Assembly: GCF_003790525.1 (NCBI RefSeq) | Contig: NZ_CP033635.1 | DNA length: 64,000 nt | DNA from: Escherichia coli | GTDB taxonomy: Bacteria; Pseudomonadota; Gammaproteobacteria; Enterobacterales; Enterobacteriaceae | Reading direction: 5' to 3' (one strand) | Shown here: positions 10,609-25,828 of the stretch, in pieces | How positions within the stretch are numbered: position 1 is the first letter of the stretch | How the letters are laid out: each line of letters starts with the position of its first letter | Program-made: the position numbers and the translations under genes | Notes under the pieces: generated by a model | Told to the model about the DNA's origin: nothing | Databases searched by the model: none | What the model saw: the letters and a program-made list of their open reading frames with translations, nothing else

Positions 10609-11311
10609 GATGCCAGCGCAGCAAGTTTGCCATCGCAAAGAGATATTTTTCGCTGGCTTCGTCGGAGGAGATGGGTGGAAACTCTGCGGTGATGCAATGC
10701 AAGTTGAGATCTGCACACCAACTGCCGAAAGAGCCAGGTGTTTCATAACCGACGCTGGTTACCAGAGGCAATTCAAACGCCTGGGCCAGCCATTCACCTA
10801 ATTCGCTGTGTCTGGGATCTTCAATACAGGCCAGCGGATCGTGGAATGAGACCACCCAGGCAGGTTGAATGCGGTGTATAAGTTGGCACAGCGCCTGGGT
10901 TTCAGGTTCGGAGCCAGGTTTGCCACCTGTCAGTAAAACGACATCACGTTCTTCAGCGGCGCTGTTCCAGCGATAAACTGTTTCACCTTCCTTCCAGTTC
11001 GCTGCCGGAAAGTTTCGGTTTAAATCCACACCATTAGCATTGGCCCGTAACCCTAACTGGCAGCCGTCAGGATTCACACACAGCACCACATGATGGCGGC
11101 GCAAAGACGGTGTCAAAGTCCGCAGAGCACAGGAGAGCGTGACGATCGAAGAGTTTTCATCACCGTGAGTGCCAGCCAGAATCAAACCACTTTCGTGACT
11201 GGCTGCAGGGGCCGGAAACCAGATTAACGGCGCGCCCAATAATGAACGTCCGTAATGTTCTGTACCGGGCGGAAATGCGCCGCGTTCGGCGCGTGGGCGA
11301 GTTACGGTCAT
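10583..11311 (-). CDS. mpaA: Murein peptide amidase A (M14 carboxypeptidase-like gamma-D-Glu-Dap amidase)
   Basis: Zn-binding HGDE motif (AGTHGDENSS); start chosen at MTVTRPRAERG (242 aa), longer ORF to 11371 is possible. Confidence 0.85.
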   Translation of the reverse strand: MTVTRPRAERGAFPPGTEHYGRSLLGAPLIWFPAPAASHESGLILAGTHGDENSSIVTLSCALRTLTPSLRRHHVVLCVNPDGCQLGLRANANGVDLNRNFPAANWKEGETVYRWNSAAEERDVVLLTGGKPGSEPETQALCQLIHRIQPAWVVSFHDPLACIEDPRHSELGEWLAQAFELPLVTSVGYETPGSFGSWCADLNLHCITAEFPPISSDEASEKYLFAMANLLRWHPKDAIRPS

Positions 11312-11406
11312 GATCGTCTCTGGTTCAGGAAGTATTACAGGCAGTGTTGTGCAAATTTTGCGGATTATCAAATCCTTTTCTTCAACGCTATGTTATCGAT
11401 CTTGTA

Positions 11407-11436
11407 TCACTTTTTTGATGGAAGTTGTTTGTATTT
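11407..11436 (+). repeat. Direct repeat copy 1 (TCACTTTTTTGATGGAAGTTGTTTG[T/C]ATTT), about 75 bp upstream of mpaA
   Basis: 30 bp with one mismatch to second copy at 14518-14547. Confidence 0.6.
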
Positions 11437-11601
11437 TCATTGATGTGCAGATATTAGAATTGTCGTAATGTTATATACATGGCGTATTTTATTCTTACTG
11501 GTTCTACACATGTTAATCGCATCTGATTGATCAGTTCACCTTAATAAGTTTAATAAATCGTACTGCACATAGTACAGTACGATGGTAGCTATATAATTGA
11601 T

Positions 11602-12240
11602 TTACATGAAGAAGGGCTTATCACCATCAGTCCCGGGTTGATTGATGCCTATATTCTCACCAATGTGTTTCTCAGGTTTATCGATGATATCTGTGATTAA
11701 TGCTGCGACACTCTTACGTGATACGATCGTACCTTTGAATGGTTCATTGCGTGAGGTAAGCTCATAATCAATAATATCTTCATCAGTCAGCCAGGCAGGG
11801 CGAAGAATTGTATATTCCAGTCCAGAAGCCTCAATTGCATCCGCAGCCCTGCGGAATGGTTTTAGGGGTTCACCAATAACTGCATTATTCCATTCGCCAA
11901 ATTTTCCTGGAACTTCATCATAAATACCGAGGGAAAGAACAAAGATCAGACGTTTAACATCACAGGCTTTCATCGCAGCGATCACTGAATTTGCCTGAAT
12001 ATCTAAATCTTCCCCCGTAAGGTTGGCATACACAACATCCTGTCCCTGCATGGCCTGCTTCAGTGCTGCATGATTCAGTACATCCCCCATAATAATCTTG
12101 CTATTAGTTGGATAGGGTTTGTGGATTTTTGCTGGCTGACGGGCAAATAAAGTTTGTTTAATGGTTTGTTTATCTGCCAGTTGATTAATCACATGGCGGG
12201 CTATCTGACCGCCAGCACCAAGAATCAGTATATTTTTCAT
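11602..12240 (-). CDS. ymjC: NAD(P)-binding Rossmann-fold protein (NmrA/SDR-like), intact
   Basis: 212 aa; N-terminal MKNILILGAGGQIARH dinucleotide-binding motif; start overlaps stop of upstream small ORF. Confidence 0.8.
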   Translation of the reverse strand: MKNILILGAGGQIARHVINQLADKQTIKQTLFARQPAKIHKPYPTNSKIIMGDVLNHAALKQAMQGQDVVYANLTGEDLDIQANSVIAAMKACDVKRLIFVLSLGIYDEVPGKFGEWNNAVIGEPLKPFRRAADAIEASGLEYTILRPAWLTDEDIIDYELTSRNEPFKGTIVSRKSVAALITDIIDKPEKHIGENIGINQPGTDGDKPFFM

Positions 12241-12311
12241 GAAACTTTTCCCAGATTATTGGCAGCAATATGCCAGGCCATATCACTATTACGGATTTGA
12301 ATATGTTTCAT
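12237..12311 (-). CDS. ymjD: Small ORF (24 aa, MKHIQIRNSDMAWHIAANNLGKVS) translationally coupled between ycjY and ymjC
   Basis: Start ATG overlaps ycjY stop (TAATG) and stop TGA overlaps ymjC start (ATGA); not in ORF track because under 60 aa; name from recalled ycjY-ymjD-ymjC-mpaA operon. Confidence 0.5.
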   Translation of the reverse strand: MKHIQIRNSDMAWHIAANNLGKVS

Positions 12312-13243
12312 TACAGAGTTTCCTCAAAGAACGGAGCTAATACTGAAATTGCTTCAGCCACATAGACTTTGCCGTCATAAAGATCCATATGGTTTGCGCC
12401 TTCAACAATGTGATAGCGTTTATCCTTGCTTGATGCTCGATCGTACAGGTCGTCACTCATCCATTTGCTCCCAGCCTGGCTGCCCGCCACAATCTGTATC
12501 GGCTGAGTCAGGTACACTTCCGCCATATGGTAAGCATCATAGGTAATAATCTGGTTAAGGCTGCGCAAAGTAGCGTAACCCGGTGCTGTTGGATACTGCG
12601 CGCGAGGGGTGTGGTAATACTCCCAGGCCTGACGCAGTTCTTCGTTCGGCGCATCGGACTCCTTCATTGGTGCCAGTGGCATAGTGGCGTATTCTCCGCT
12701 GCTAATATCGCTGGTTCGGGCGTCTGAACCCGCGTCAACGTATGGTAGGGCATCAATAGATTTCACATTGTTTTCCCAACCATTACGGAACATCGAACCA
12801 ATATTGACCGCACTAACAGTACCGATGGCCTTGATGCGGCGATCCTGAATTGCAGCATTGGCTGTATATCCTGCTCCGGCACAAATTCCCATCGCACCAA
12901 TTCGGGTATTGTCGACATAAGAAAGCGTTGTCAGGTAATCAATCACGGCACTGACGTCTTCAGTACGAATGTATGGGTTTTCTAACTGACGCGGCTCGCC
13001 GCCGCTTTCACCTTGATAAGATGCGTCATAAGCAATAGTGACAAATCCCTTTTCCGCCAGTTTTTCGGCATAGGTTCCGGCCGTTTGCTCTTTAACGCCC
13101 CCACCTGGGTGAGATACCACAATTACCGGATACTGACGGGTTTCATCAAATTTTGGAGGGAAATAGATCACTGCAGACAAAGAGATGGTTGGATTATTGC
13201 TGTTAGTGAAGCTGACTTTATTATTCATCATTCCGTTCCTCAT
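12311..13243 (-). CDS. ycjY: Alpha/beta hydrolase (dienelactone-hydrolase-like, Cys nucleophile)
   Basis: 310 aa; nucleophile elbow G-I-C-A-G (GxCxG) in IGAMGICAGAGY. Confidence 0.88.
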   Translation of the reverse strand: MRNGMMNNKVSFTNSNNPTISLSAVIYFPPKFDETRQYPVIVVSHPGGGVKEQTAGTYAEKLAEKGFVTIAYDASYQGESGGEPRQLENPYIRTEDVSAVIDYLTTLSYVDNTRIGAMGICAGAGYTANAAIQDRRIKAIGTVSAVNIGSMFRNGWENNVKSIDALPYVDAGSDARTSDISSGEYATMPLAPMKESDAPNEELRQAWEYYHTPRAQYPTAPGYATLRSLNQIITYDAYHMAEVYLTQPIQIVAGSQAGSKWMSDDLYDRASSKDKRYHIVEGANHMDLYDGKVYVAEAISVLAPFFEETL

Positions 13244-13301
13244 GGAGTTGTCGGTTCGTTTTAACGGTTGGTGATATCACTATAGATATTGATCATTAAG
13301 T

Positions 13302-13350
13302 TGATTAGACCCAAAATCATGATTAGACCTATCATTTAAATGATTAATAG
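13302..13350. promoter_or_regulatory. Candidate operator repeats in divergent ycjY/pgrR promoter region
   Basis: TGATTAGACC at 13302 and 13320 plus TGATTAATAG at 13341, spaced about 18-21 bp, between divergent starts. Confidence 0.35.
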
Positions 13351-13368
13351 ATTGTATGGAGATACTGA

Positions 13369-14268
13369 ATGAAGCGTGAAGAAATCGCTGATCTGATGGC
13401 GTTTGTCGTTGTTGCAGAGGAGCGTAGCTTCACTCGCGCAGCAGCCCGCCTGAGCATGGCGCAGTCAGCTTTAAGCCAGATAGTGCGCCGTATAGAAGAA
13501 CGATTGGGATTGCGGCTTCTGACGCGAACCACGCGCAGCGTTGTACCCACTGAAGCGGGCGAGCATCTTTTGTCTGTTCTTGGCCCTATGTTGCATGACA
13601 TAGATTCTGCCCTGACATCCCTGAGCGATCTGCAGAACCGCCCATCCGGGACAATACGTATTACTACTGTAGAACATGCAGCAAAAACGATATTGTTACC
13701 AGCTATGCGCACATTCCTGAAATCGCATCCTGAAATTGATATTCAGCTTACCATTGATTATGGTTTGACCGATGTCGTTTCTGAACGTTTTGATGCAGGC
13801 GTCCGTCTGGGTGGGGAGATGGATAAAGATATGATCGCCATTCGAATCGGGCCAGACATACCAATGGCTATTGTTGGCTCACCGGATTATTTTTCTCGTC
13901 GAAGTGCTCCAACGTCAGTGTCACAATTAATAGATCATCAGGCAATTAATTTGTATCTTCCCACATCGGGTACAGCAAATCGCTGGAGATTAATACGCGG
14001 TGGACGTGAAGTTCGTGTTCGCATGGAAGGTCAGCTTTTACTGAATACGATAGACCTGATCATTGATGCTGCAATTGATGGGCATGGATTGGCGTATCTA
14101 CCTTATGATCAGGTTGAGCGGGCTATTAAAGAAAAAAAACTGATACGTGTTTTGGATAAATTCACACCAGATTTACCCGGTTATCACCTGTACTATCCAC
14201 ACCGTCGACATGCTGGCTCGGCATTCTCATTATTTATAGATAGGCTGAAGTATAAAGGTGCTGTTTAG
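13369..14268 (+). CDS. pgrR: LysR-family transcriptional regulator (peptidoglycan recycling regulator)
   Basis: 299 aa; N-terminal LysR HTH (MAFVVVAEERSFTRAAARLSMAQSALSQ). Confidence 0.9.
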   Translation: MKREEIADLMAFVVVAEERSFTRAAARLSMAQSALSQIVRRIEERLGLRLLTRTTRSVVPTEAGEHLLSVLGPMLHDIDSALTSLSDLQNRPSGTIRITTVEHAAKTILLPAMRTFLKSHPEIDIQLTIDYGLTDVVSERFDAGVRLGGEMDKDMIAIRIGPDIPMAIVGSPDYFSRRSAPTSVSQLIDHQAINLYLPTSGTANRWRLIRGGREVRVRMEGQLLLNTIDLIIDAAIDGHGLAYLPYDQVERAIKEKKLIRVLDKFTPDLPGYHLYYPHRRHAGSAFSLFIDRLKYKGAV

Positions 14269-14517
14269 CACTACTTGCTGATACATTAATTTAATTCTTC
14301 TCTTAACGTATTCTCAGTTCCTTTCAACGTTTTGGTTATTTTTTATTCTTCGCACAATGGCGACAGATGCTGATTATGATACCGAAAACGGGTTTGAACG
14401 TGCGAAGCCCGAACGTAGTGTTCGGAGTTCTATGTGCTTTACCGCATTTTGGAGACTATTATTTACACTAAATCTGATTTGATATATTGATACTTAAAAC
14501 ATTTGATGCTTCCTTTG

Positions 14518-14547
14518 TCACTTTTTTGATGGAAGTTGTTTGCATTT
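14518..14547 (+). repeat. Direct repeat copy 2 (TCACTTTTTTGATGGAAGTTGTTTGCATTT), about 60 bp upstream of mppA
   Basis: Matches copy 1 at 11407-11436. Confidence 0.6.
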
Positions 14548-14604
14548 CTTTAAGGCGAAACAAATAATTACGCATCAATTTTAATGTCGGTTAGAGGGAA
14601 ACTT

Positions 14605-16218
14605 ATGAAGCACTCTGTTTCAGTCACGTGTTGTGTGCTGTTGGTCAGCAGCATTTCTCTTTCGTATGCTGCTGAAGTTCCGAGCGGCACAGTACTGGCA
14701 GAGAAGCAGGAGCTGGTGCGCCACATTAAAGATGAGCCAGCGTCGCTGGATCCCGCTAAAGCCGTGGGCCTGCCGGAGATTCAGGTCATTCGCGATCTGT
14801 TTGAAGGACTGGTGAATCAGAACGAGAAAGGGGAGATTGTCCCCGGCGTTGCGACTCAGTGGAAAAGTAATGACAGCCGTATCTGGACTTTTACCCTGCG
14901 CGATAACGCAAAATGGGCGGATGGCACACCGGTAACGGCGCAAGATTTTGTCTACAGCTGGCAACGTCTGGTGGACCCGAAAACGCTATCGCCATTTGCA
15001 TGGTTTGCCGCGCTGGCGGGAATCAACAACGCACAGGCGATTATTGATGGTAAAGCCACGCCTGACCAGCTTGGCGTCACCGCAGTTGATGCCCATACTT
15101 TGAAAATCCAGCTTGATAAACCATTGCCGTGGTTTGTGAATTTAACCGCTAACTTTGCCTTCTTCCCGGTGCAAAAAGCCAACGTAGAAAGCAGTAAAGA
15201 GTGGACGAAACCCGGAAATCTGATCGGCAATGGCGCTTATGTTCTTAAAGAGCGCGTAGTCAATGAAAAACTGGTCGTAGTGCCGAATACCCATTATTGG
15301 GATAACGCCAAAACGGTACTGCAAAAAGTGACCTTCCTGCCAATTAATCAGGAATCCGCAGCCACTAAGCGTTATCTCGCGGGGGATATTGATATCACCG
15401 AATCCTTCCCGAAAAATATGTATCAGAAGTTGTTGAAGGATATTCCGGGGCAGGTTTATACGCCGCCGCAGCTCGGGACCTATTATTATGCGTTTAACAC
15501 GCAAAAAGGGCCGACGGCAGATCAGCGCGTTCGCCTGGCATTAAGTATGACGATAGATCGCCGCCTGATGACCGAAAAAGTGTTGGGGACGGGCGAAAAG
15601 CCAGCGTGGCATTTTACACCAGATGTTACCGCGGGATTTACGCCGGAACCTTCGCCGTTTGAACAAATGAGTCAGGAAGAACTGAATGCGCAGGCAAAAA
15701 CTTTGTTGAGCGCAGCTGGTTATGGTCCGCAAAAACCGCTGAAGTTGACGCTTTTGTATAACACTTCAGAAAACCATCAAAAAATTGCGATTGCTGTAGC
15801 ATCGATGTGGAAAAAGAACCTGGGCGTAGATGTTAAATTGCAAAACCAGGAATGGAAAACCTATATCGATAGCCGTAATACCGGCAATTTTGATGTTATC
15901 CGCGCCTCGTGGGTAGGGGATTATAATGACCCCTCCACTTTCCTGACATTATTAACGTCAACGCATTCCGGGAATATTTCACGCTTTAACAATCCGGCAT
16001 ATGACAAAGTTCTGGCCCAGGCATCGACGGAAAATACCGTTAAAGCGCGTAATGCCGATTACAACGCGGCAGAAAAAATCCTCATGGAGCAAGCACCGAT
16101 TGCACCAATTTATCAATATACCAATGGACGATTAATCAAGCCGTGGCTGAAAGGTTATCCCATTAATAACCCTGAAGATGTGGCGTACAGTCGGACTATG
16201 TATATTGTGAAGCATTGA
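14605..16218 (+). CDS. mppA: Periplasmic murein tripeptide-binding protein (OppA paralogue, SBP family 5)
   Basis: 537 aa from MKHSVSVTCCVLLVSSISLSYA signal peptide. Confidence 0.9.
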   Translation: MKHSVSVTCCVLLVSSISLSYAAEVPSGTVLAEKQELVRHIKDEPASLDPAKAVGLPEIQVIRDLFEGLVNQNEKGEIVPGVATQWKSNDSRIWTFTLRDNAKWADGTPVTAQDFVYSWQRLVDPKTLSPFAWFAALAGINNAQAIIDGKATPDQLGVTAVDAHTLKIQLDKPLPWFVNLTANFAFFPVQKANVESSKEWTKPGNLIGNGAYVLKERVVNEKLVVVPNTHYWDNAKTVLQKVTFLPINQESAATKRYLAGDIDITESFPKNMYQKLLKDIPGQVYTPPQLGTYYYAFNTQKGPTADQRVRLALSMTIDRRLMTEKVLGTGEKPAWHFTPDVTAGFTPEPSPFEQMSQEELNAQAKTLLSAAGYGPQKPLKLTLLYNTSENHQKIAIAVASMWKKNLGVDVKLQNQEWKTYIDSRNTGNFDVIRASWVGDYNDPSTFLTLLTSTHSGNISRFNNPAYDKVLAQASTENTVKARNADYNAAEKILMEQAPIAPIYQYTNGRLIKPWLKGYPINNPEDVAYSRTMYIVKH

Positions 16219-16229
16219 TGTGATGGGAA

Positions 16230-16257
16230 CTGGCGTTACCCTTGTGGATAACGCCAG
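16230..16257. terminator. Hairpin between convergent mppA and ynaI
   Basis: CTGGCGTTA / TAACGCCAG 9-bp stem; no strong U-tract. Confidence 0.4.
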
Positions 16258-16268
16258 TGATGTCTGAT

Positions 16269-17300
16269 TTAGCGACCCTGGTCCGGCGGTGTAATGTTAT
16301 CCATATACAGCGTCTGGCTGGGGAAGGCAAAGTCCGCACCGTGTGACTGTACAATATCGATAATCTTCAAATAAACGTCTTGCTGTGCAGCAAGCCACTC
16401 AGCCCATACCGTGGTTTTGGTAAAGCAATAAACCATAATATTTAATGACGAATCAGCAAACTGGTTGAAATAAACCAGTAAGGTTTGTCGCTGGTCGATG
16501 GCCGGGTGATTTTTCAGCATCTCACGTACGGCTTCGACAATAACGCCCACTTTTGCCGCATCCTCATAACGTAAACCAATGGTCGTGGTAATGCGCCGGT
16601 TGGTCATTCGTCCAGGATTTTCTACGCTGATCGACGAAAACAGCGAGTTCGGTACGTACAATGGACGATTATCAAAGGTCTTAATTTTGGTAATTCGCCA
16701 GCCAATTTCCGCTACTGTACCTTCGATATTTCTGTCCGGTGAACGGATCCAGTCGCCAATACTGAAAGGACGGTCGAAATAGAGCATAATCCCGGAAAAG
16801 AAGTTACTCAGAATATCTTTACCGGCCATACCGACAGCCAGACCACCAATACCACCAAAGGTCAACAAGCCAGAAAGGCTCATGCCGAAATGTTCGCCAT
16901 AAAGCAGAACAAGCACCACAATAATGGTGATTTTGATAATGCGCGACATGATCCGCGCACTGGTGATATCGCGACCTTTTTTAATCTGCTGTTTTTCAAA
17001 CTGATTAATCAGCAGAAATAGCTTAATCGTCAGAATAACCGCAATCAGGGACGTACAGATAAAATCGATAACGCCTGGGGTGATAAATTTGAGTTTATAG
17101 TTTTCTATAACATAGTTAATGATGCTACCAACAGCACTAATAATTATGGTGTAGATTAAAAATTGCACCGCATGGAATAAAAATCCTTTTCTTTTACGAT
17201 TTCCACGGCGAAACCAAAAGCTCATCAGAATCAATGCTGCGCAGCTACCGAAAATAATGACCAGATTAAGCGCATTATTTGTAAACAGTTCAGCGATCAT
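16269..17300 (-). CDS. ynaI: MscS-family mechanosensitive channel
   Basis: 343 aa; N-terminal TM helices plus MscS beta-domain. Confidence 0.9.
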
Positions 17301-17543
17301 TGTTTTATCAGGCTCCTCCAGATAATTGTCGTCATGCCGGAAACCCCTGGCGGGGCTATTTTACCGCGACAATTCATTCAGATCATCAATAGTCAGGGAA
17401 GTAAGTAGCAACATTAGCTAACAAATCAATGCATTGATTGTAAATCCAGCTAAGAGGTGAGGTTTTCAGAGCAGACAAGAGTGAAATGTCATGGTATTGT
17501 TACGTTTAGGTAACAAGAAATTTGTCTGCACAAGGATTACATC

Positions 17544-21988: not shown

Positions 21989-23434
21989 TTATTTTAAAGG
22001 TGACGGTGTCACGTTTTTCGGGATAGGGCAGTGATACGGTTGCGTGTCCGTAACTTGCTGATGCTCTTGTTGGCATTCTTGCAATAGCCCTGAATCAATG
22101 AAGAGATTAAGTGTGGTTGCTGCCATAGTTTTCGCCGCCAGCAGCATTCCTTTATGAGCAATAGATGTTCGCCCCTGGCTAACCAGTTGCCACGTATGTA
22201 GCGGGGTACCGACGGCAAAGCAGGGGCTGAAACACTGGGCAACAGGCAGTTTCCAACTGACGTCGCCGACATCAGTCGATGCCGCAAGCACGTTATCGGT
22301 GGCGGCATATGGAGCGACTTCATTCGCCAGTACCGTTTCACGATGACGTAGTGCAAAAGCCTTGCCGTTTTCGCCACCGGTTGCAGCGATATTATTCAGA
22401 CTGTTTTGCCGATCGTTGGGGGTGAGCGTAGCCTGAATTTGTTTCGCAAAAGCCAGTTCTTCGCAGTTCCATTCCGGGGTACCAAAATGGGATAGGGCTC
22501 GGTACATGGCATTTTCTAAGGTGCGATTCGGGAGATAACTGGAACAGGCTTTGTCGAAGCGGCATTCAACCGTGGTTTCGGTCATCAATGCCGCACCTTC
22601 GGCGATTTTGGCGACCCGATCATAAATATGCTGCACATCGGTCATTTCGGGGGCGCGGATAAGATAAAGCACTTCTGCCTGCGCCTGGACCACGTTGGGC
22701 GAGATCCCGCCGCTATCTGTGATGGCATAGTGTACGCGCGCTTTTTCAATAATATGTTCGTTGAGGAAGTTGGTGCCAGTGGTCATCAACGTTACGGCAT
22801 CAAGGGCGCTGCGTCCCAAATGAGGGGAATTCGCGGCATGTGCTGCGATCCCTTTAAAGCGCCATGATGCCTGAATGTTTGCCAGCGTGCGGGTATTGAA
22901 CATACCGGCAAAGGCTTCCGGGTGCCAGGTGAGTGCCGCATCCACATCATCAAATACCCCCTCGCGGACCATGAACGTTTTACCCGAGCCGCCTTCTTCG
23001 CCAGGACAACCATAAAAGCGCACCGTGCCGCCTTGCCCATATTGTTCCAGCCATTTCTTGACGGCTATTGCAGCGGCAAAGGCGGCGGTTCCCAGCAAAT
23101 TGTGTCCGCAACCGTGACCATTTTCACCGGGCGTCGCGGATGTAGGTTGCGCGCAACTTGCTTGCTGACTTAAACCTGCCAGGGCGTCATATTCCCCCAG
23201 CAGGGCGATAACCGGTTTGCCTTGACCAAACGAAGCAATAAAGGCATTTGGGATATTGCCTACGTTGCGGGTAACGGTGAAGCCTGCAGACTCCAGCGCC
23301 GAAGCCAGATGCTCCGCTGACCAGAACTCTTCAAAACGTGTTTCTGGATGATCCCAGATTTGATCGGCAATATCGGTATAACGTTGGCGATCGGCTTCAA
23401 TCGCATCGTCGATAAAACGATAGATTTCCTGCAT
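21989..23434 (-). CDS. abgB: p-Aminobenzoyl-glutamate hydrolase subunit B (M20 peptidase)
   Basis: 481 aa; M20 family metal ligands; start overlaps abgA stop. Confidence 0.9.
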   Translation of the reverse strand: MQEIYRFIDDAIEADRQRYTDIADQIWDHPETRFEEFWSAEHLASALESAGFTVTRNVGNIPNAFIASFGQGKPVIALLGEYDALAGLSQQASCAQPTSATPGENGHGCGHNLLGTAAFAAAIAVKKWLEQYGQGGTVRFYGCPGEEGGSGKTFMVREGVFDDVDAALTWHPEAFAGMFNTRTLANIQASWRFKGIAAHAANSPHLGRSALDAVTLMTTGTNFLNEHIIEKARVHYAITDSGGISPNVVQAQAEVLYLIRAPEMTDVQHIYDRVAKIAEGAALMTETTVECRFDKACSSYLPNRTLENAMYRALSHFGTPEWNCEELAFAKQIQATLTPNDRQNSLNNIAATGGENGKAFALRHRETVLANEVAPYAATDNVLAASTDVGDVSWKLPVAQCFSPCFAVGTPLHTWQLVSQGRTSIAHKGMLLAAKTMAATTLNLFIDSGLLQECQQEHQQVTDTQPYHCPIPKNVTPSPLK

Positions 23435-24744
23435 CAGATACCTCGCGTCCAGGGAAAATTGAGCGCGGTGCGCGCCAGCGTTTCGACGGCAATAGCGAGA
23501 ACCTGCTCGTCAAAATCGAATTTTTCATTGTGATGACCTGCCGCCAGCTGTGTGCCAAATACCATGTAGGAGGCTTGCCCTTGATGTCGCTGCACGCGGG
23601 CCATCATTAATGTGGCATCTTCGGAACCCGCAGGCGCTTCAACACGTTCAATGGCCTGATTGACCCCCGCGACCTGAGCCGCCTGGATTTGCAACCATGC
23701 GACCCATTGCGGCGAAGGAGAACTGGCGGTAGCAGCACCCATCAGACGAGTTTCAACGCCGACACCATACATGGTTGCTGCGCCCTGAATCGCTTGTTGT
23801 GCACGTTCAAAAACATATTGATTAATGACGTCGCTGGCCCCGCGTGTTTCCACTTTCAGCAACGCCGAGGCAGGAACAACATTACGACCGCTTCCTGCCT
23901 GCATAACGCCCACGTTTACTCTGGAAGCGCCTTCGCTGTGCGGGGCGATTGCATGCAGTGCAAGAGTTGCTTGTGCTGCCGCCAACAAGGCATTGTGACC
24001 GTCTTCTGGTTTTGCGCCTGCGTGAGCGGCGGTCCCGGTGAAGTGCGCGTCAAATTTGGTGGTTGCCATAAAATTATCACTGCCGCACACCACGGTGCCC
24101 GCAGGTACGCCAGTGCCAATGTGCACGGCAGTAAAATAATCAACATCATCTACGACACCTGCATCGACCATCGCCCGCGCGCCACGCGTACCTTCCTCTG
24201 CAGGCTGAAAAATCAGTTTGATGACGCCATGTAGTCCGGACTCGAATTGTTTAAGGGTATGCGCCAGCCCAAGCCCAATGGCGGTATGCCCATCATGACC
24301 ACAGGCATGCATCATTCCGGCGTTACATGACGCAAAACCGTCGCGGTAGGGGCGATGGCTGACATCCTGCTCTTCACTGAGATCCAGCGCGTCCATATCG
24401 ACACGGAAAGCCATCACCGGACCGGGGCGACCAGTATCCAGGGTAGCGACGATGCCAGTGAAACCGCCTTCAAAAGCCGCAATCCATTGTTCTAGCGCCC
24501 CCTGTTGACGAGCGCGCTCGAATTCGCGTTGTAGAGTGAATTCATCAGGTAATCCCATCCGGCTACTTTCATTAACGACTTCGCGGCCCAGCGCCAGTGA
24601 ATAACCGAGCTGGTGCAATTCTTCCGCAACAACGGTGGCAGTGCGGAATTCCACCCAGCCAGACTCTGCATAGTGGTGAAAATCACGTCGCCAGTGCGAT
24701 AATTTTGGGGCAAGCGAATTAATAAATTGATTCAAAGACTCCAT
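23434..24744 (-). CDS. abgA: p-Aminobenzoyl-glutamate hydrolase subunit A (M20 peptidase)
   Basis: About 436 aa from MESLNQFINSLAP; M20 family. Confidence 0.9.
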   Translation of the reverse strand: MESLNQFINSLAPKLSHWRRDFHHYAESGWVEFRTATVVAEELHQLGYSLALGREVVNESSRMGLPDEFTLQREFERARQQGALEQWIAAFEGGFTGIVATLDTGRPGPVMAFRVDMDALDLSEEQDVSHRPYRDGFASCNAGMMHACGHDGHTAIGLGLAHTLKQFESGLHGVIKLIFQPAEEGTRGARAMVDAGVVDDVDYFTAVHIGTGVPAGTVVCGSDNFMATTKFDAHFTGTAAHAGAKPEDGHNALLAAAQATLALHAIAPHSEGASRVNVGVMQAGSGRNVVPASALLKVETRGASDVINQYVFERAQQAIQGAATMYGVGVETRLMGAATASSPSPQWVAWLQIQAAQVAGVNQAIERVEAPAGSEDATLMMARVQRHQGQASYMVFGTQLAAGHHNEKFDFDEQVLAIAVETLARTALNFPWTRGI

Positions 24745-24919
24745 AACCTTTCCCGTCATCAGTAAAAAGTGTGACCCGGTTCACGTAGCGATAGTTTTTA
24801 CTTATCACTAACTGATTTTTCACAGTTTTAACCGTTCATAAATTACCCTGACACAATCATCTGCATTAAAGTAGATGCCAGTTTCTTTGGTCTGATAAAT
24901 AACGGTTATCGGTGGCGTC

Positions 24920-25828
24920 ATGGCTTTTCAGGTAAAAATTCATCAAATTCGGGCTTTTGTTGAAGTGGCTCGTCAGGGCAGCATTCGCGGAGCGAGCCGA
25001 ATGTTGAATATGTCGCAACCGGCACTGAGTAAATCTATTCAGGAACTGGAAGAAGGGTTGGCGGCACAACTCTTTTTTCGCCGTAGTAAAGGCGTGACGT
25101 TAACTGATGCCGGTGAAAGTTTTTATCAGCACGCCAGTCTTATTCTTGAAGAGCTGCGCGCAGCGCAAGAGGATATTCGCCAACGACAAGGGCAACTGGC
25201 AGGGCAAATTAATATCGGCATGGGGGCCAGTATTTCCCGCAGTCTGATGCCAGCTGTCATATCTCGTTTTCATCAGCAGCATCCGCAGGTAAAAGTACGC
25301 ATTATGGAAGGGCAACTGGTGTCGATGATTAATGAATTGCGCCAGGGAGAACTGGATTTCACCATCAATACCTATTATCAGGGACCCTACGACCACGAAT
25401 TTACTTTTGAGAAATTACTGGAAAAGCAATTCGCGATCTTTTGCCGCCCGGGACATCCCGCCATTGGTGCCCGTTCGATCAAACAGTTACTGGACTACAG
25501 CTGGACAATGCCGACGCCACACGGCAGCTACTACAAACAGTTGAGTGAATTGCTTGACGATCAGGCGCAAACGCCACAGGTCGGCGTAGTCTGCGAGACG
25601 TTCTCAGCCTGTATCAGTCTGGTGGCAAAAAGCGATTTTCTCAGCATACTACCTGAAGAAATGGGCTGCGATCCCTTGCACGGACAGGGGCTGGTGATGT
25701 TGCCGGTTAGCGAAATTTTACCGAAAGCGACCTATTATTTGATTCAGCGGCGTGATAGTCGCCAGACACCACTGACCGCGTCATTAATCACGCAATTTCG
25801 GCGAGAATGCGGCTATCTGCAAAGTTAA
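24920..25828 (+). CDS. abgR: LysR-family regulator of abg operon
   Basis: 302 aa; LysR HTH; divergent from abgABT. Confidence 0.9.
   Translation: MAFQVKIHQIRAFVEVARQGSIRGASRMLNMSQPALSKSIQELEEGLAAQLFFRRSKGVTLTDAGESFYQHASLILEELRAAQEDIRQRQGQLAGQINIGMGASISRSLMPAVISRFHQQHPQVKVRIMEGQLVSMINELRQGELDFTINTYYQGPYDHEFTFEKLLEKQFAIFCRPGHPAIGARSIKQLLDYSWTMPTPHGSYYKQLSELLDDQAQTPQVGVVCETFSACISLVAKSDFLSILPEEMGCDPLHGQGLVMLPVSEILPKATYYLIQRRDSRQTPLTASLITQFRRECGYLQS

Follow-up and report, generated by a model that had tools for sequence, protein, structure and literature searches.

Two copies of a 30-bp sequence, at 11407–11436 and 14518–14547 of a 64,000-nucleotide stretch of Escherichia coli DNA (contig NZ_CP033635.1; hereafter the window), lie on either side of three genes that separate mpaA from mppA. 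Comparison of this locus with its counterparts in other genomes leads us to conclude that the two 30-mers are very probably one ancestral sequence, which became doubled as a foreign cassette inserted into the control region shared by the divergent mpaA and mppA genes on the lineage leading to E. coli. By annotation, mpaA (10583–11311, minus strand) encodes the murein tripeptide amidase and mppA (14605–16218, plus strand) the murein tripeptide binding protein; comparison with outgroups delimits the inserted cassette to 3,081 bp (11437–14517). The 30-bp repeat is thus an ordinary but well-resolved piece of genome history.

A short direct repeat and its single-copy counterpart in outgroups

Over the compared stretch, the window matches E. 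coli SMS-3-5 with 100% identity, and sequence search places both copies on the plus strand, 3,111 bp apart from start to start. Copy 1, on the mpaA side, reads TCACTTTTTTGATGGAAGTTGTTTGTATTT, while copy 2, on the mppA side, ends in GCATTT, and the two agree at 29 of 30 positions. This bears out the original prediction, which had described a 30-bp direct repeat with one mismatch at these positions; not one of 100 shuffled sequences yielded a match to the 30-mer, even when three mismatches were allowed. Copy 1 is located 95 bp upstream of the annotated mpaA ATG (11311) rather than the roughly 75 bp first proposed; for copy 2, the distance to the mppA ATG (14605) downstream is 57 bp, close to the earlier figure of about 60 bp. 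Ungapped extension lengthens the match to 33 of 37 positions, through weak similarity over 7 bp on the left; on the right the match ends abruptly. When the two intergenic regions were aligned locally, nothing homologous appeared beyond these 30–37 bp, indicating that the repeat is short and sharply bounded. Genome-wide, a 40-nucleotide probe matched 5,418 of 5,426 complete E. coli genomes at 10,624 places, with a median of two places per genome; hence the 30-mer is no generic repeat present at many loci, and a dispersed repeat was rejected. An RNA element was also rejected, since Rfam gave only a sub-threshold RAGATH-10 match located inside pgrR; fold prediction of the 30-mer and its junctions gave nothing significant.

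We then compared the arrangement of mpaA and mppA across an MpaA scan with one genome per species, which comprised 80 loci from Escherichia, Citrobacter, Salmonella, Enterobacter, Klebsiella, Kluyvera, Raoultella, and other genera. At 71 of these loci, all from outgroups, mppA and mpaA are adjacent and divergent, separated by a spacer of 141–319 bp (mostly 180–206 bp), and the best match to the 30-mer falls at a conserved position in most of the 71 spacers. Five Escherichia outgroups (E. albertii L009, E. whittamii L013, and the loci L006, L007, and L010) share a 182-bp spacer composed of 95, 30, and 57 bp, with a single 30-mer at positions 96–125. The E. coli junctions, namely 95 bp followed by the 30-mer on one side and the 30-mer followed by 57 bp on the other, reconstitute the empty L006 spacer almost base for base, which indicates that 3,081 bp (11437–14517) was inserted and 30 bp of the target was duplicated. 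Host sequence that is single-copy at unoccupied sites therefore stands in two copies around the insert in E. coli, as expected of a target duplication. One of the two readings offered by the original prediction was an insertion scar left by a cassette that came between ancestrally adjacent mpaA and mppA, and both the gene spacing in other genera and the match between the one-copy 182-bp spacers and the E. coli flanks uphold it.

In the window, the left 95 bp of the ancestral spacer corresponds to 11312–11406 and contains, on the minus strand, the putative mpaA promoter, whereas the right 57 bp corresponds to 14548–14604 and contains, on the plus strand, a -10-like AATAAT (14563–14568) and the mppA ribosome-binding site. 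At the likely ancestral right end of the cassette, found in O157 and Escherichia sp. E1V33, the sequence runs ...TTCCTGTG|TCAC, and five of the eight preceding bases match the target as well. Because of these additional matches, the duplication may extend to ∼38 bp, or microhomology may have been used at the join.

Another insert, of 3.1–3.4 kb, occupies the same mpaA-mppA spacer in Salmonella enterica subsp. arizonae and diarizonae (L027 6848–10000; L028), and encodes three proteins that by eye resemble the CdtA/B/C set of cytolethal distending toxin. Its breakpoint lies inside the 30-mer homologue, and the mppA-proximal promoter region is replaced. We rejected it as an event of the same kind because the duplication is absent.

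Recombination between the two copies

Positions 11–13 of the repeat distinguish the two copies. Copy 1 carries GCC, the ancestral state, in 4,542 genomes and GAT in 106, while copy 2 carries GAT in 3,290 genomes and GCC in none. The window strain has the copy-2 state, GAT, in copy 1, together with T at position 26. In LF82 and VTB96929v, close relatives of SMS-3-5, copy 1 shares the GTATTT background and carries GCC, and the GAT of copy 1 in the SMS-3-5 lineage would most likely represent a short conversion patch from copy 2. Such a conversion would account for 29/30 identity in the window as opposed to 28/30 in most strains; the one-mismatch identity first reported thus holds for the lineage of the window but not for most E. 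coli, in which GCC in copy 1 faces GAT in copy 2.

Strains that lack the cassette provide a record of exchange between the copies. In 174 E. coli genomes the reconstructed 182-bp empty spacer has an unbroken match, and a precise empty site is present in 166–174 complete E. coli genomes (∼3%). In all seven empty-site genomes inspected (ST648, 1428, MRY15-117, 2014C-3075, PT62, SCU-172, and ET201), mpaA lies directly beside mppA. The empty sites retain a hybrid repeat, either GCC or GAT, that joins the mpaA-side flank to the mppA-side flank, as expected if the repeats are the substrate for deletion: ten genomes carry an exact GAT junction, four more carry it with one mismatch, and the remainder carry GCC. 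Since GAT occurs only in E. coli and never in the outgroups, a GAT junction attached to the mpaA-side flank can arise only if copy 1 crossed over with copy 2, or if an empty and a filled allele crossed over inside the 30-mer. The empty sites sit on at least five flank backgrounds among the seven sampled, with the one-mismatch junction class in addition; the left flank of SCU-172 is identical to that of SMS-3-5 over 2,380 bp, and PT62 and ET201 are closest to O157 and K-12-like flanks. The range of backgrounds and the hybrid junctions together indicate that precise loss of the cassette is recurrent.

This precise excision, which restores the empty site, raises the question of whether a degenerate integrative element is flanked here by attL/attR-like sites, its site-specific recombinase having been lost or acting in trans. 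The length of the direct repeat is typical of attachment-site cores. However, crossovers are found on both sides of the GCC/GAT mismatch, as homology-driven exchange predicts, and the cassette lacks the equipment of such an element. No transposase, integrase, or excisionase gene, or remnant of one, is annotated in RefSeq within the cassette in four allele types, and no tRNA or tmRNA gene is present in 9000–17500, the target of insertion being a promoter region. A repeat search, supplemented by comparison of the ends by eye, found no inverted pair joining the sequence from 11437 with that up to 14517. The cassette is also single-copy (median of one place per genome) and was seen at no other site, and its ends look random: in O157 a queH fragment is annotated close to the right end, and the left end lies 165 bp past the SDR stop codon. 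A transposon or integrase island was therefore rejected, based on the missing terminal inverted repeats, mobility genes, and tRNA, and we regard attL/attR-like sites as highly unlikely.

One further feature hints at a preferred breakpoint and would favor att-like sites to that extent. K-12-like strains carry a 665-bp deletion (11437/8–12102) that starts within 1 nucleotide of the repeat/cassette boundary (11436|11437), involves only 1 nucleotide of microhomology, and reduces the SDR gene to the K-12 ymjC/ymjD remnant. The deletion is identical in the K-12-like strains (L003 2637–2640) and in Escherichia sp. E1V33. Its endpoint could be a coincidence or a preferred breakpoint. We see a slight chance that the 30-bp duplication and this deletion together mark the boundary after TTTGCATTT as a preferred site of breakage or joining, or are the footprint of an unrecognised integration activity with joins staggered by ∼30 nucleotides. 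If so, the promoter would gain and lose the cassette not by accident but through a reversible switch that is semi-programmed.

Content, origin, and spread of the cassette

According to the annotation, the cassette encodes only an SDR-family oxidoreductase, the alpha/beta hydrolase YcjY, and the LysR-type regulator PgrR, with non-coding DNA at both ends. Its ycjY (12311–13231, minus strand) and pgrR (13369–14268, plus strand) genes are divergent and were correctly placed in the cassette by the original prediction; the separate ymjC and ymjD genes that it listed are instead, in the window strain, a single intact 212-aa SDR gene (11602–12240, minus strand), of which the K-12 ymjC/ymjD remnants are the counterpart. 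The fullest allele of the cassette measures ∼3.96 kb. In the longer allele of O157:H7, pgrR diverges from a ycjY-second hydrolase-SDR array, the second alpha/beta-hydrolase gene of O157:H7 and similar strains (L097 3439–4330) lying between ycjY and the SDR gene (window 12240–12254), and a queH fragment is annotated by the Prokaryotic Genome Annotation Pipeline in the O157:H7 pgrR-mppA spacer. This enzyme shares 81–86% identity with the second hydrolase encoded by LysR-hydrolase-hydrolase modules of Pluralibacter and metagenomic contigs, which indicates that the O157 form is closest to the original and that SMS-3-5 has lost the gene. The cassette decays differently from one lineage to another (O157:H7 and SMS-3-5; VTB96929v, L002).

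An inverted repeat, CGTACTG...CAGTACG, is present at 11562–11584, just downstream of the SDR stop codon, and the left end of the VTB96929v deletion falls inside it. This element may act as an SDR terminator that, in long-allele strains, limits transcription running on into mpaA.

The pgrR/ycjY/second-hydrolase module is found in unrelated contexts elsewhere, where PgrR and YcjY share 79–89% protein identity with their E. coli counterparts, apart from one more distant PgrR relative. YcjY is 81–89% identical to proteins of Pluralibacter, Rhizobium, Mesorhizobium, Sphingobium, Burkholderia, and Agrobacterium, a degree of conservation that is unusual between classes for a protein whose function is unknown and which suggests frequent transfer of the LysR-hydrolase module. 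At the DNA level, homology elsewhere covers only pgrR-ycjY (12254–14269) and does not include the cassette ends, and because of this restriction the ends look like arbitrary breakpoints in a donor chromosome. Plasmid matches in the donor search were either chromosomal sequences that had been mis-binned or, at 80% identity, a plasmid of Klebsiella aerogenes.

No other genus examined has the cassette, and neither do five of the six non-coli Escherichia genomes that we compared. In L006, the nearest outgroup, the flanking genes are 93–97% identical to those of SMS-3-5 and the site is empty. The sole non-coli carrier, Escherichia sp. E1V33 (L008 7374–10000), has flanks that are 85–88% identical to E. 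coli, together with ycjY and pgrR genes that are 97–98% identical, which indicates that its cassette was acquired from E. coli. Diagnostic sites in E1V33 change from native to E. coli-like inside the spacer and return to native within the first 11 nucleotides of copy 2. This distribution would date the insertion to the E. coli stem.

Conversely, the cassette could be ancestral to the Enterobacteriaceae or to Escherichia, with the taxa in which mpaA and mppA are adjacent having lost it through pre-existing repeats. Precise loss demonstrably occurs inside E. coli, but this explanation requires dozens of independent precise losses in >70 species with no remnant in any of them. It also sits poorly with the G+C content of the cassette, which is below that of its surroundings (43.9% versus 49.5% for the window), with the occurrence of the pgrR/ycjY module in unrelated contexts, and with the clear derivation of the E1V33 cassette from E. 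coli. We consider an ancestral cassette extremely unlikely.

The duplicated sequence and the mpaA and mppA promoters

To place the 30-mer within the control region, we aligned 71 distinct empty spacers. Conserved blocks are present in the left part of the spacer (GGCAGTGTTGTGCAAA and GATAATCAAAT) and to the right of the 30-mer (GAAACAAATAATTAC, followed by the ribosome-binding site), whereas within the 30-mer the ends are conserved (TCAAnTTT and TTTGCAWTT) and the middle is variable. A consensus scan predicts an mppA promoter, TTTGCA-18-AATAAT, at 14539–14568, equivalent to TTGCAT-17-AATAAT, with the predicted -35 box TTGCAT (14540–14545) located within copy 2. Copy 2 would therefore carry the mppA -35 box and the A/T tract upstream of it. 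On the minus strand, the conserved left blocks contain TTGATA (11371–11366) and, after a 17-nucleotide spacer, AACACT (11348–11343), both outside the 30-mer, and we propose TTGATA-17-AACACT as the putative mpaA promoter. With the promoter blocks at these positions, copy 1 would lie at about -72 to -101 from the putative mpaA start, outside the core promoter. A sigma-54-like reading of TGGCAG...TGCA was considered by eye and fails on spacing (GG-N9-GC).

In E. coli K-12, the reported regulon of PgrR (YcjZ) comprises ycjY-ymjDC-mpaA, ycjG (annotated at 9643–10608 on the plus strand of the window), and ycjXF-tyrR. The published PgrR targets from systematic evolution of ligands by exponential enrichment (SELEX) include, at this locus, only the ycjY/ycjZ spacer, and the 30-mer is not among them. 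Because SELEX lists only this spacer while the regulon includes ycjY-ymjDC-mpaA, the likeliest explanation of PgrR control of mpaA would be transcription that reads through from the imported ycjY promoter, rather than binding to the repeat. SELEX tables for RpoD and the minor sigma factors place promoters in the ycjY/pgrR spacer and none at the 30-mer. Moreover, the 30-mer is present in >70 taxa without pgrR; it predates pgrR and thus was not originally a PgrR operator. Taken together with the recent arrival of the cassette, this suggests that PgrR is a recent horizontal import and that its hold on mpaA may be an E. coli-specific rewiring and not an ancestral circuit.

The other reading of the original prediction was that the two copies form a shared cis-regulatory element. 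A selected shared operator, bound at both copies by PgrR or a global factor and coordinating the uptake and breakdown of murein tripeptide, is attractive insofar as mpaA and mppA have linked functions, some segments of the 30-mer are conserved between genera, copy 1 of SMS-3-5 has become more like copy 2, and PgrR is reported to control ycjY-ymjDC-mpaA. However, descent from one ancestral copy fully accounts for the identity of the two sequences, the one or two differences in 30 bp approximate the neutral divergence of the flanks, and the GCC/GAT differences fall in the part that varies between genera. The copies are also oppositely oriented relative to their genes and unequally spaced from them (95 and 57 bp), the element occurs in >70 taxa without pgrR, the SELEX list points to the ycjY/ycjZ spacer alone, and single-copy strains are viable and recurrent. 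We therefore regard a selected shared operator as quite unlikely. What survives of the regulatory reading is that the 30-mer is a piece of the ancestral bidirectional control region with a predicted mppA -35 box; the presence of two copies needs no selection, and neither copy was originally a PgrR site.

A chromatin immunoprecipitation sequencing table for enterotoxigenic E. coli assigns a CRP site, CGTGAACCGGGTCACA, to ycjZ/mppA (PMC4287617). In the window this site is actually located at 24770–24785 on the minus strand, between divergent open reading frames at 23434–24759 (minus strand) and 24920–25828 (plus strand); situated ∼10 kb away, it is irrelevant as a regulator of the mppA promoter.

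Two strains have other rearrangements upstream of mppA. In E. coli MFDS1019527 (L005 1–6950), prophage genes (tail fibre, host specificity protein J, and cor) abut mppA at a junction inside the signal-peptide codons (∼window 14657), such that the phage side provides a different mppA 5′ end and upstream region and the 30-mer is missing at the junction. In E. coli MDR_56 (L004 6338–7506), the IS4-like insertion sequence (IS) IS421 replaces the cassette, the 5′ end of mppA is truncated, and copy 1 alone is left.

Proposed history of the locus

In the history that we propose, mpaA and mppA were originally divergent and adjacent, with a single 30-mer in their spacer. A random foreign fragment would then have integrated in a single illegitimate event, either at a break with a stagger of ∼30 nucleotides or through a replication template switch that copied 30 nucleotides a second time. 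Each gene kept its own side of the spacer plus the common 30 bp; copy 2 would now supply the -35 box and upstream A/T tract of mppA and copy 1 would be a leftover upstream of the mpaA promoter, while mpaA would additionally have come under the imported PgrR via read-through from ycjY. The repeats have since served as a recombination substrate, giving precise loss of the cassette in ∼3% of genomes, and they offered right-hand homology when the cassette spread to another Escherichia lineage. As sources of the original duplication, we consider a circle that carried the 30-mer and entered in the Campbell manner, or some unknown site-specific activity, less likely.

Several points weigh against this history. 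A 30-bp duplication around a cassette without mobility genes matches no documented mechanism, and the break or template-switch step is one that we infer. The donor search recovered no donor junction, and a sigma-70 consensus scan upstream of mpaA found no promoter. In principle, the GCC-type empty sites in E. coli could be a surviving ancestral allele rather than excisions. Finally, L006 may itself have lost the cassette by the same excision, in which case the insertion would be somewhat older than E. coli.

Insertion of the cassette explains why mpaA and mppA, which are neighbours in other enterobacteria, are split by three unrelated genes in E. coli. The locus offers a clean natural example in which duplication allowed both divergent genes to keep a common control segment after an insertion, and the same duplication made the insertion reversible, with ∼3% of sequenced strains back in the ancestral arrangement. 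Natural pairs of filled and empty strains are consequently available for testing the role of the cassette and of each copy. An import of PgrR would also caution against assuming that regulons defined in K-12 hold for other species. What stands out is the length of the duplication (30 bp), its reversibility in the population, and a link between PgrR and peptidoglycan recycling that would be a recent accident of insertion.

Comparison with known systems

The locus resembles the target-site duplications of IS elements and transposons in that host sequence occurs once at the empty site and twice, as direct repeats, around the insert. It differs in the length of the duplication, 30 bp (possibly 37–38 bp) as opposed to the usual 2–14 bp, and in an insert that has no transposase, terminal inverted repeats, or other genomic copies and that resembles a random chromosomal fragment. 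The attL and attR sites of integrase islands and prophages are similar in being repeats of tens of base pairs whose precise recombination regenerates the unoccupied site; unlike them, the present locus has no integrase, no tRNA or tmRNA target, and no element moving elsewhere, and its crossovers are spread over the repeat. The reported PgrR regulon of K-12 involves the same genes, with pgrR inside the cassette next to mpaA, but our comparison indicates that pgrR is a recent import, and the 30-mer lies outside the reported SELEX targets. Homology-facilitated illegitimate recombination is comparable to the transfer into E1V33, whose two crossovers map to the spacer and to the first 11 nucleotides of the 30-mer; it fits this secondary spread and not necessarily the original event. 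A further parallel is deletion and conversion between short direct repeats in bacterial chromosomes, in which the bracketed segment is lost precisely and one hybrid copy is left, as observed here, and patches are converted, as is likely here, with nothing material that sets the two apart.

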